A program made the position numbers and the translations under genes. From NCBI RefSeq assembly GCF_003334305.1, contig NZ_QOWS01000016.1: a DNA stretch of 64,000 bases; one strand, given 5' to 3'. Below, piece by piece: positions 12,014 through 33,049 of this stretch; positions within the stretch are counted from its first letter, which is position 1; every line of letters starts with the position of its first letter. The notes beneath the pieces were generated by a model that did no database searches, was not told the DNA's origin, and saw only the letters and a list, made by a program, of their open reading frames with translations. Source of the stretch: Escherichia coli. GTDB taxonomy: Bacteria; Pseudomonadota; Gammaproteobacteria; Enterobacterales; Enterobacteriaceae.

Positions 12014-12508
12014 ATGGTAGATAGCAAGAAGCGCCCTGGCAAAGATCTCGACCGTATCGATCGTAACATTCTTAATGAGTTGCAAAAGGATGGGCGTATT
12101 TCTAACGTCGAGCTTTCTAAACGTGTGGGACTTTCCCCAACGCCGTGCCTTGAGCGTGTGCGTCGGCTGGAAAGACAAGGGTTTATTCAGGGCTATACGG
12201 CGCTGCTTAACCCCCATTATCTGGATGCATCACTTCTGGTATTCGTTGAGATTACTCTGAATCGTGGCGCACCGGATGTGTTTGAACAATTCAATACCGC
12301 TGTACAAAAACTTGAAGAAATTCAGGAGTGTCATTTAGTATCTGGTGATTTCGACTACCTGTTGAAAACACGCGTGCCGGATATGTCAGCTTACCGTAAG
12401 TTGCTGGGGGAAACCCTGCTGCGTCTGCCTGGCGTCAATGACACACGGACATACGTTGTTATGGAAGAAGTCAAGCAGAGTAATCGTCTGGTTATTAAGA
12501 CGCGCTAA
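12014..12508 (+). CDS. lrp: lrp, leucine-responsive regulatory protein (164 aa)
   Basis: ORF track 11960..12508 trimmed to MVDSKKRPGKDLDRIDRNILNELQKDGRISNVELSKRVGLSPTPCLERVRRLE (AsnC/Lrp HTH). Confidence 0.95.
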   Translation: MVDSKKRPGKDLDRIDRNILNELQKDGRISNVELSKRVGLSPTPCLERVRRLERQGFIQGYTALLNPHYLDASLLVFVEITLNRGAPDVFEQFNTAVQKLEEIQECHLVSGDFDYLLKTRVPDMSAYRKLLGETLLRLPGVNDTRTYVVMEEVKQSNRLVIKTR

Positions 12509-12546
12509 CACGGAACAGGTGCAAAATCGGCGTATTTTGATTACAC

Positions 12547-12566
12547 TCCTGTTAATCCATACAGCA
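12547..12566. promoter_or_regulatory. Candidate LexA (SOS) box upstream of ftsK
   Basis: tcCTGttaatccataCAGca fits CTG-N10-CAG; about 80 bp upstream of the ftsK TTG start. Confidence 0.45.
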
Positions 12567-12642
12567 ACAGTACTGGGGTAACCTGGTACTGTTGTCCGTT
12601 TTAGCATCGGGCAGGAAAAGCCTGTAACCTGGAGAGCCTTTC

Positions 12643-15600
12643 TTGAGCCAGGAATACACTGAAGACAAAGAAGTCACATTGACAAAGTTAAGTAGCGGCC
12701 GTCGCCTTCTGGAAGCGTTGCTGATCCTTATTGTCCTGTTTGCCGTCTGGTTGATGGCTGCCTTACTAAGCTTTAACCCTTCGGACCCCAGCTGGTCGCA
12801 AACGGCCTGGCATGAACCTATCCATAATTTAGGTGGGATGCCCGGTGCGTGGCTGGCAGATACGCTGTTCTTTATTTTTGGCGTGATGGCTTACACCATT
12901 CCCGTCATTATTGTCGGCGGTTGTTGGTTTGCCTGGCGTCATCAGTCCAGTGACGAATACATTGATTATTTTGCCGTTTCGCTACGCATCATTGGCGTTT
13001 TGGCGCTCATCCTTACCTCCTGTGGTCTGGCGGCAATCAACGCTGACGATATCTGGTATTTTGCCTCCGGTGGCGTCATTGGCAGCTTACTAAGCACTAC
13101 GCTACAACCACTGCTACACAGTAGCGGGGGAACTATTGCGCTGCTCTGCGTTTGGGCTGCGGGCCTGACGCTGTTCACCGGTTGGTCATGGGTGACCATT
13201 GCTGAAAAACTCGGCGGCTGGATTTTAAACATTCTCACCTTCGCCAGTAATCGTACCCGTCGCGATGATACCTGGGTCGATGAAGATGAATATGAAGATG
13301 ACGAAGAGTATGAAGATGAAAACCACGGCAAACAGCATGAATCACGCCGTGCCCGTATTCTTCGCGGCGCGCTAGCGCGTCGTAAACGGTTGGCGGAAAA
13401 ATTCATTAATCCGATGGGGCGGCAAACAGACGCTGCGTTGTTCTCCGGTAAGCGGATGGATGATGACGAAGAGATTATCTACACTGCACGCGGTGTGGCT
13501 GCCGACCCGGACGACGTCCTATTTTCGGGCAATCGTGCAACGCAGCCAGAATATGACGAATACGATCCATTATTAAACGGTGCGCCAATTACCGAACCTG
13601 TCGCTGTAGCAGCTGCTGCTACCACGGCGACACAAAGCTGGGCTGCGCCGGTTGAACCTGTGACTCAGACGCCGCCTGTTGCCTCTGTTGATGTTCCACC
13701 TTCGCAACCTACAGTAGCCTGGCAGCCTGTACCGGGTCCACAAACGGGAGAGCCGGTTATTGCTCCTGCACCGGAAGGTTACCCACAGCAGTCACAATAT
13801 GCGCAGCCTGCAGTGCAATATAATGAGCCGCTGCAACAACCAGTACAGCCGCAGCAGCCGTATTATGCACCTGCAGCTGAACAACCTGCGCAACAACCTT
13901 ACTACGCTCCTGCGGCGGAACAACCTGTTCAGCAACCGTATTACGCCCCTGCGCCAGAACAACCGGTGGCAGGTAACGCCTGGCAAGCCGAAGAGCAGCA
14001 ATCCACTTTTGCTCCACAGTCTACATACCAGACTGAGCAAACTTATCAGCAACCAGCCGCTCAGGAGCCGTTGTACCAACAGCCGCAATCCGTTGAACAG
14101 CAGCCTGTTGTGGAGCCTGAACCCGTTGTAGAAGAGACAAAACCCGCGCGTCCGCCGCTTTACTATTTTGAAGAAGTGGAAGAGAAGCGAGCCCGTGAAC
14201 GTGAACAACTTGCGGCCTGGTATCAACCGATTCCAGAACCGGTTAAAGAACCAGAACCGATCAAATCTTCGTTGAAAGCGCCTTCTGTTGCAGCAGTACC
14301 TCCAGTAGAAGCCGCTGCCGCTGTTTCTCCGCTGGCATCTGGCGTGAAAAAAGCGACACTGGCGACGGGGGCTGCCGCAACCGTTGCCGCGCCAGTCTTC
14401 AGTCTGGCAAATAGCGGTGGACCGCGTCCGCAAGTCAAAGAGGGGATTGGCCCGCAGTTGCCACGACCGAAACGTATCCGCGTGCCAACTCGTCGTGAAC
14501 TGGCGTCTTACGGTATTAAGCTGCCCTCACAGCGTGCGGCGGAAGAGAAAGCCCGTGAAGCCCAGCGCAATCAGTATGATTCTGGCGATCAGTATAACGA
14601 TGATGAAATCGATGCGATGCAGCAGGATGAACTGGCACGTCAGTTCGCCCAGACACAGCAGCAACGCTATGGCGAACAGTATCAACATGATGTGCCCGTA
14701 AACGCAGAAGATGCAGATGCTGCGGCAGAGGCTGAACTGGCTCGTCAGTTTGCGCAAACTCAACAACAACGTTATTCCGGCGAACAACCGGCTGGGGCGA
14801 ATCCGTTCTCGCTGGATGATTTTGAATTTTCGCCAATGAAAGCGTTGCTGGATGATGGTCCACACGAACCGTTGTTTACGCCAATTGTTGAACCTGTACA
14901 GCAGCCGCAACAACCGGTTGCACCGCAGCAGCAGTATCAGCAGCCGCAACAACCAGTTCCGCCACAGCAGCAATATCAGCAGCCGCAACAGCCGGTTGCG
15001 CCGCAGCCGCAGTATCAGCAGCCACAACAGCAGGTTGCGCCGCAGCCACAATATCAGCAGCCGCAACAACCGGTTGCGCCACAGCCGCAATATCAGCAGC
15101 CGCAACAACCAGTTGCGCCGCAGCCGCAGTATCAACAGCCGCAACAACCGGTTGCACCGCAGCAGCAGGATACCCTGCTTCATCCGCTGTTGATGCGTAA
15201 TGGCGACAGCCGTCCGTTGCATAAACCGACGACGCCGCTGCCTTCTCTGGATTTGCTGACACCGCCGCCGAGCGAAGTGGAGCCGGTAGATACCTTTGCG
15301 CTTGAACAAATGGCTCGCCTGGTGGAAGCGCGTCTGGCTGATTTCCGTATTAAAGCCGATGTCGTCAATTACTCTCCGGGGCCGGTTATCACTCGCTTTG
15401 AACTTAACCTGGCTCCTGGCGTAAAAGCGGCGCGCATTTCTAACTTGTCACGGGACCTTGCCCGTTCACTTTCGACGGTGGCGGTGCGTGTCGTTGAAGT
15501 TATTCCTGGCAAACCCTATGTAGGTCTGGAGTTACCAAATAAAAAACGACAAACCGTTTATCTGCGCGAAGTTTTGGATAACGCCAAATTCCGCGATAAT

Positions 15601-16710
15601 CCGTCGCCATTAACCGTGGTGCTGGGTAAAGATATCGCCGGTGAGCCGGTGGTTGCCGATCTGGCGAAAATGCCGCACTTGTTGGTTGCGGGGACTACCG
15701 GTTCCGGTAAATCTGTCGGTGTGAACGCGATGATCCTGAGCATGCTTTATAAAGCACAGCCAGAAGATGTGCGTTTCATCATGATCGACCCGAAAATGCT
15801 GGAGCTTTCGGTTTATGAAGGCATTCCGCATCTGTTAACGGAAGTCGTTACTGATATGAAAGATGCCGCCAACGCGCTGCGCTGGTGTGTTAACGAGATG
15901 GAGCGTCGGTATAAACTGATGTCTGCGCTGGGTGTGCGTAATCTGGCGGGTTATAACGAAAAAATTGCTGAAGCCGATCGCATGATGCGTCCGATTCCAG
16001 ACCCGTACTGGAAGCCGGGTGACAGTATGGATGCCCAGCATCCGGTGCTGAAAAAAGAACCATACATTGTGGTGTTGGTTGACGAATTTGCCGACCTGAT
16101 GATGACGGTAGGTAAAAAAGTGGAAGAGCTGATAGCACGTCTGGCGCAAAAAGCCCGTGCCGCGGGTATCCACCTCGTACTGGCAACTCAGCGTCCATCG
16201 GTTGATGTTATTACTGGTCTGATTAAAGCGAATATTCCGACCCGTATCGCCTTTACCGTATCCAGTAAGATTGACTCACGTACCATTCTTGATCAGGCTG
16301 GCGCGGAATCACTGCTGGGGATGGGGGATATGCTCTACTCTGGGCCGAACTCCACGTTGCCGGTACGTGTCCATGGTGCTTTTGTTCGCGATCAGGAAGT
16401 TCATGCCGTGGTGCAGGACTGGAAAGCGCGTGGTCGCCCACAGTATGTTGATGGCATCACTTCCGACAGTGAAAGCGAAGGTGGCGCGGGCGGTTTCGAT
16501 GGCGCTGAAGAACTGGATCCGTTGTTCGATCAGGCGGTGCAGTTTGTCACTGAAAAACGCAAAGCGTCAATTTCTGGCGTACAGCGTCAGTTCCGCATTG
16601 GTTATAACCGTGCAGCGCGTATTATCGAACAGATGGAAGCGCAGGGGATTGTCAGCGAACAGGGGCACAACGGTAATCGTGAAGTGCTGGCCCCACCGCC
16701 GTTTGACTAA
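12643..16710 (+). CDS. ftsK: ftsK, DNA translocase (1355 aa as encoded here; TTG start)
   Basis: ORF 12643..16710 starts at TTG with protein [27 protein letters not shown]; N-terminal TM domain, Pro/Gln-rich repetitive linker, C-terminal motor with Walker A GTTGSGKS. Confidence 0.95.
14899..15171 (+). repeat. In-frame 39-bp tandem repeat (7 copies, last one degenerate) encoding [13 protein letters not shown] units in the FtsK linker
   Basis: Copies at 14899, 14938, 14977, 15016, 15055, 15094, 15133; unit cagcagccgcaacaaccggttgcgccgcagccgcagtat with point variation. Confidence 0.9.

Positions 16711-30766: not shown

Positions 30767-33049
<2,283 letters not shown>

Follow-up and report, generated by a model that had tools for sequence, protein, structure and literature searches.

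The closest described system is the dinH promoter (ftsKp2) of Escherichia coli K-12, whose SOS box goes back to Lewis et al. (1994) and Dorazi and Dewar (2000), both cited here second-hand, and the connection between ftsK and the SOS response has been documented since the 1990s. Reviews describe dinH as an SOS promoter and the second promoter of ftsK, essential in normal growth, and place the first promoter (P1), which is dispensable, within lrp. The gene is already counted among those with known SOS boxes; the string given for ftsK in Table 4 of PMC3009722 is ACTCCTGTTAATCCATACAGCAACA, the published heterology index of the box is 9.2 against a usual cut-off of 15, and a tiling-array study found the box among the motifs upstream of UV-induced genes (PMC3009722).

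Functional data on this operator are also available. Reg-Seq treats ftsK/LexA as a high-evidence, gold-standard site. Its automated call places a LexA repressor site at -8 to +4 of the transcription start 933138, which corresponds to 12549-12561 of the window (the whole 64,000-nt stretch of E. coli DNA analysed here), and, base by base, its values resemble those of a repressor site from -8 to +5 (12549-12562), where mutations raise expression. In a later study, the repressor footprint at ftsK was lost under peroxide (H2O2). With AZT, ftsK expression rose 1.5-fold and its dependence on LexA cleavage (lexA3) was 1.7-fold, both values being significant; with ciprofloxacin, the log2 fold change of ftsK was at most 0.94 and no increase in FtsK protein was detectable; and in Salmonella exposed to MX, ftsK changed 1.2-1.4-fold, which was not significant.

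The same box is found in the window. The 20-mer at 12547-12566, TCCTGTTAATCCATACAGCA (the same string as tcCTGttaatccataCAGca), is identical, base for base, to the published ftsK/dinH SOS box, and a site that the initial annotation had called by pattern only is in this way matched to a published operator. As described there, the 20-mer fits CTG-N10-CAG, with CTG at 12549-12551 and CAG at 12562-12564; within it, CTGTTAATCCATACAG (12549-12564) forms the imperfect 16-bp palindrome CTGT-N8-ACAG, in which CTGT and ACAG are both present. Our reading, with a probability of about 0.95, is that the 20-mer is the operator through which LexA acts on the dinH promoter, from which E. coli ftsK is mainly transcribed.

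The observation holds, its interpretation is supported, and the element is already known. The site call itself brings no new biology; its value is that of a positive control, in which a genuine operator with experimental backing was recovered by reading raw sequence. Through the box, the amount of FtsK, the DNA translocase by which chromosomes are cleared from the septum as it closes, is tied to the DNA-damage response. The proposal that ftsK has an SOS-inducible promoter is upheld by the published lexA-dependent induction and footprint, with the qualification that the induction is small and that the same promoter is a housekeeping one. The comparative detail added here is that the box is characteristic of the Enterobacterales as an order, often stronger than that of E. 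coli, and that a conserved TTG start and a structured leader accompany it.

Anatomy of the lrp-ftsK spacer

The window is E. coli DNA: a 321-nt region of it matches 5426 of 5426 complete E. coli genomes at an identity of at least 95%, and the lrp-ftsK spacer is the same as that of K-12 MG1655 at every base. Window position x corresponds to position x + 920581 of NC_000913.3. The spacer measures 134 nt, from the lrp stop codon (12506-12508) to the ftsK start, and contains the box, in agreement with the intergenic placement given at the outset. The distance from box to ftsK, which had been put at about 80 bp, is about 76-77 nt from the end of the 20-mer to the TTG at 12643 and about 86 nt from the centre of the box. 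The features of the region are as follows.

12014..12508, + strand: lrp coding sequence, the gene upstream (transferred RefSeq annotation)
12519..12524, + strand: putative -35 element, GTGCAA (TGCA invariant in a 47-row alignment; Reg-Seq activator-like at -38 to -35, 12519-12522)
12542..12547, + strand: putative -10 element, TACACT (invariant in the 47-row alignment except in Serratia oryzae; Reg-Seq weakly activator-like at 12541-12546)
12547..12566, no strand: LexA (SOS) box of ftsK, that is, the dinH box, TCCTGTTAATCCATACAGCA (sequence, score of 16.1 bits at rank 1, published identity, conservation, Reg-Seq footprint)
12554..12557, + strand: start sites of the dinH promoter (ftsKp2), within the box (Cappable-seq 12554; Reg-Seq/EcoCyc 12557)
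12564..12595, + strand: RNA hairpin in the ftsK leader and lrp 3' region (fold, covariation, Term-seq 3' end)
12628..12652, + strand: translation-initiation region, with GGAG at 12631-12634, TTG at 12643-12645, and CCTGG (12628-12632) facing CCAGG (12648-12652) (conservation, fold)
12643..16710, + strand: ftsK coding sequence, TTG start, 1355 aa (list of open reading frames, RefSeq, conserved N-terminal peptide SQEYTEDK)

The promoter was placed by phylogenetic footprinting together with published start sites; a generic scan for sigma-70 promoters and terminators over 12300-12760 called nothing, and a search of 12300-12800 against Rfam, with a permissive cut-off, returned sub-threshold noise only. 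Conservation and weak Reg-Seq signals suggest GTGCAA as the -35 and TACACT as the -10 element, the per-base Reg-Seq values being noisy (about 1e-3 bits) and backing the -10 call only loosely. The two hexamers are separated by 17 nt, and this promoter spacer holds no invariant column in the 47-row alignment; the -10 of Serratia oryzae reads TATACT, which is nearer the consensus. The pairing of TTGATT (12538-12543) with TACAGC as -35 and -10 was considered and rejected, TTGATT being unconserved whereas GTGCAA and TACACT are conserved.

Carrying U00096.2 coordinates over to U00096.3 requires an offset that we take to be +777 here (an IS1 plus 1-bp insertions). With it, the Cappable-seq start at U00096.2 932358 falls on 933135, or window 12554, an A located 7 nt past the -10. 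The start listed by Reg-Seq and EcoCyc, 933138 or window 12557, is entered as experimentally validated and LexA-regulated, citing Lewis et al. The last base of TACACT is the first base of the 20-mer, and the box, abutting the -10 and holding both 12554 and 12557, overlaps the core promoter and its start sites.

Two further transcript ends lie on the lrp side of this promoter. A second Cappable-seq start on the + strand, U00096.2 932153, maps to about window 12349, inside lrp, with TAGTAT at 12337-12342 a few bases upstream, and fits the dispensable ftsK P1. Term-seq places a strong RNA 3' end at window 11849 (K-12 932430), 165 nt upstream of the lrp start and with an intrinsic terminator score of 7.4, which would mean that the 5' leader of lrp contains a terminator or attenuator.

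The geometry of the site suggests how LexA would act on it. A LexA dimer seated on CTGT (12549-12552) and ACAG (12561-12564) would cover the 3' edge of the -10 and the start (12554/12557), and would compete with RNA polymerase at the dinH promoter because of that coverage; from this arrangement we infer steric occlusion as the mechanism of repression. Upon DNA damage, RecA-stimulated self-cleavage of LexA frees the promoter and allows a modest rise in ftsK transcription. Since the box is an operator of middling strength, and a second, LexA-independent start lies inside lrp, repression is partial, and the promoter also provides the housekeeping supply of FtsK. Because dinH is also the housekeeping promoter, LexA trims a promoter that is always on rather than switching one that is otherwise silent.

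Matrix score, conservation and competing readings

The bare pattern does not discriminate: CTG-N10-CAG occurs 26 times in the window versus 14 +/- 4 times in shuffled versions of it, an excess for which our guess is the commonness of CTG and CAG codons. A symmetrised LexA matrix was built from 17 other E. coli SOS boxes (PMC3009722, Table 4), with ftsK excluded. Under this matrix, the ftsK box scores 16.1 bits and ranks first among 63,981 window positions, its analogue of the heterology index is 10.3, and it falls within the range of accepted boxes scored by leave-one-out (uvrD 15.7, dinB 13.4, dinG 13.2, and polB 4.6). Matrix scoring had been proposed as a check on the 20-mer, which comes out on top, yet 17 of 200 mononucleotide-shuffled windows (8.5%) attain the same score. 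For this reason the score is only moderately above chance, and taken alone it is suggestive and not decisive; at this score, 0.07 matches are expected in 64 kb, and some 5 in a genome, by an exact iid calculation. Position and conservation, not score, carry the case.

The runner-up match to the matrix in the window, TACTGTTTAGCCAGCCAGTC at 31578-31597, scores 14.1 bits, and about 0.2 such matches are expected per 64 kb. It lies inside the pflB coding sequence by conversion to K-12 coordinates, and was set aside as probably a chance match.

For the comparison across species, genome contigs were scanned with a degenerate pattern for the C-terminus of Lrp (YVVMEEVKQ), which matched in 120 gammaproteobacterial species. 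In 111 of the 120 species ftsK was found downstream of lrp on the same strand, and in seven of the nine misses the available flank was too short, at most 256 nt. The box is distributed among the orders as follows.

Enterobacterales, window included, 50 loci: intact orthologous box in 48, located 72-163 nt before the ftsK start and scoring 12.5-21.2 bits
Vibrionales, Alteromonadales and Aeromonadales, 53 spacers: no score above 9.6 bits, box absent
Pasteurellales, 9 loci: spacer of only 1-14 nt, lrp and ftsK nearly abutting

Far better boxes than that of E. coli are found in Yersinia, Serratia, Hafnia, and Edwardsiella (TCCTGTTTATTCATACAGTT, 21 bits). Of the 20 positions of the box, 13 are invariant (TCCTG, AT, and ATACAG), variation being limited to the centre and the 3' flank. 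Two exceptions are informative in their losses: a Pantoea symbiont of stink bugs, in which both half-sites are mutated (CTA...CAA), and Moellerella, in which the motif reads CTG-N12-CAG, the -10 is lost, about 800 nt are inserted, and ftsK starts with ATG. Within E. coli, the 53-nt block of promoter and box is unchanged in 5418 of 5427 records. Eight lrp-ftsK matches lie on E. coli records annotated as plasmids, and the region is present twice in some genomes, perhaps through mislabelling of replicons or through duplication. In each of the nine Pasteurellales loci, ftsK has neither an intergenic promoter nor a LexA box of its own, and we would guess that it is co-transcribed with lrp.

That the 20-mer is a chance match to CTG-N10-CAG with no regulatory role might be argued from the abundance of the bare pattern in the window and from the shuffled windows that equal its score. 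Against this, only 1.3e-4 matches of such a score are expected in the 134-nt spacer, the box recurs at the same place across the Enterobacterales, and a footprint and lexA-dependent induction have been published; conservation and the published mutagenesis refute the idea, the probability of which is practically nil. It could instead be that the block is kept for the edge of the -10, the start site, and the beginning of the leader, with LexA binding incidental to it. The position of the box, abutting an invariant TACACT and containing the starts, would agree with such a constraint, as would the small induction and the invariance of positions 1-2 of the 20-mer (TC), which are of little weight to LexA. 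However, both half-sites are invariant, including ATACAG at +7 to +11, where no core element is expected, and per-position conservation follows the information content of the LexA matrix (Spearman 0.54, p = 0.02, positions 3-20). In many lineages, the central positions that vary have moved closer to the LexA consensus, reaching up to 21 bits, and mutations in the block raise expression, as at a repressor site, so that constraint by the core promoter with incidental LexA binding is very improbable.

A further account accepts that LexA binds and holds that it serves mainly, together with the TTG codon and the leader hairpin, to keep the steady-state level of an essential, dose-sensitive gene low, with induction by damage being marginal. 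It is in keeping with the description of dinH as an essential promoter in normal growth, with an induction of 1.2-1.9-fold at an unchanged protein level, with a TTG start in 48 of 50 species and an invariant initiation region, and with a conserved leader hairpin that coincides with an RNA 3' end; on the other hand, the much stronger boxes of several lineages (19-21 bits) point to real switching in these. This account is unlikely, if worth keeping in mind, and it differs in emphasis, not in mechanism, from the preferred reading of the 20-mer as the LexA operator of dinH.

Leader hairpin and translation start

The hairpin lies beyond the dinH start and hence spans +11 to +42 of the ftsK leader. 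The E. coli stem is 14 bp long, formed by 12564-12577 with 12582-12595; its first 3 nt overlap the box, and its conserved core pairs 12568-12577 with 12582-12591. Among 48 Enterobacterales, compensatory changes are found in 10 of the 10 core pairs and 98.7% of cells are paired, values that 0 of 500 shuffles attain; when the partners are slid by 1-3 columns, pairing drops to 34-61%. Frequent G-U pairs point to an RNA of the + strand. A Term-seq 3' end at 933176 corresponds to window 12595, the last base of the stem, with a Rho score of 1.03 (Rho-independent). The hairpin of the leader and its RNA 3' end are real.

The stem-loop of the hairpin is stable and GC-rich, with 14 bp and 10 covarying pairs, as expected of an intrinsic terminator; the sequence after the stem, UUGUCCGUUUU, is an interrupted U tract and was not called by the pattern scan. 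The intrinsic terminator score is 1.70 against a threshold of 3.0, coverage is 475 upstream versus 419 downstream, and transcription mostly reads through. Moellerella keeps the hairpin beside lrp despite the loss of the promoter, which fits a role at the lrp 3' end. Between the hairpin and the Shine-Dalgarno sequence, about 14 extra nt (12610-12625) are present in E. coli, E. albertii, Citrobacter, and an Enterobacter MAG (L057), and are missing from most other Enterobacterales; in E. coli this segment contains a possible small stem, GCAGG AAAAG CCTGT.

The TTG start of ftsK at 12643, already given in the initial annotation, is borne out by the open reading frame, in which no possible start lies upstream of it, by RefSeq, which annotates the same TTG in E. 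coli strain 120899 and in K-12, and by its conservation in 48 of 50 Enterobacterales. GGAG precedes it by 8 nt. The initiation region, CCTGGAGAGCCTTTCTTGAGCCAGGAA, hardly varies among 48 species, even at the synonymous sites of codons 3-4. Folding predicts a CCTGG/CCAGG stem that encloses the Shine-Dalgarno sequence and the start codon; the region is without variation and shows no covariation, and the pairing around both elements could form. Morganella has lost the left arm (CCTGG) and starts ftsK with ATG. FtsK is 1355 aa long here, against 1329 aa in K-12 and 1407 aa in strain 120899, so its length varies within E. coli, presumably in the repetitive, Pro/Gln-rich linker.

These elements can be combined into a broader and decidedly doubtful proposal, in which ftsK of the Enterobacterales would be held low by three stacked conserved devices: the LexA box, the covarying hairpin (+11 to +42) ending part of the dinH transcripts, and an invariant TTG within the CCUGG/CCAGG stem. 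If this were true, the hairpin could release a damage-inducible RNA of roughly 42 nt.

Comparison with known operators and terminators

With intrinsic terminators and leader attenuators, the hairpin shares a GC-rich, covarying stem, a U-rich tail, and a Rho-independent RNA 3' end. Unlike intrinsic terminators, it has an interrupted U tract (UUGUCCGUUUU), a score below the threshold, and a coverage that barely falls across it; and unlike typical terminators, it lies downstream of the ftsK transcription start and so belongs both to the lrp 3' end and to the ftsK leader.

Among LexA operators, the ftsK box may be set beside the mid-strength operators of uvrD, dinB, dinG, and polB, with which it has in common the CTG-N10-CAG core, the range of scores, and a small induction. 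It is unlike them in having C, not A, before CTG, in its poor AT-rich centre (TTAATCCA), and in overlapping the transcription start of a promoter that undamaged cells require. From the dinH/ftsKp2 SOS box of E. coli K-12 (Lewis et al., 1994; Dorazi and Dewar, 2000) it does not differ: it matches in sequence, position, and flanks, the 25-mer is the one published for ftsK (PMC3009722), and the two are the same element in another strain of E. coli.
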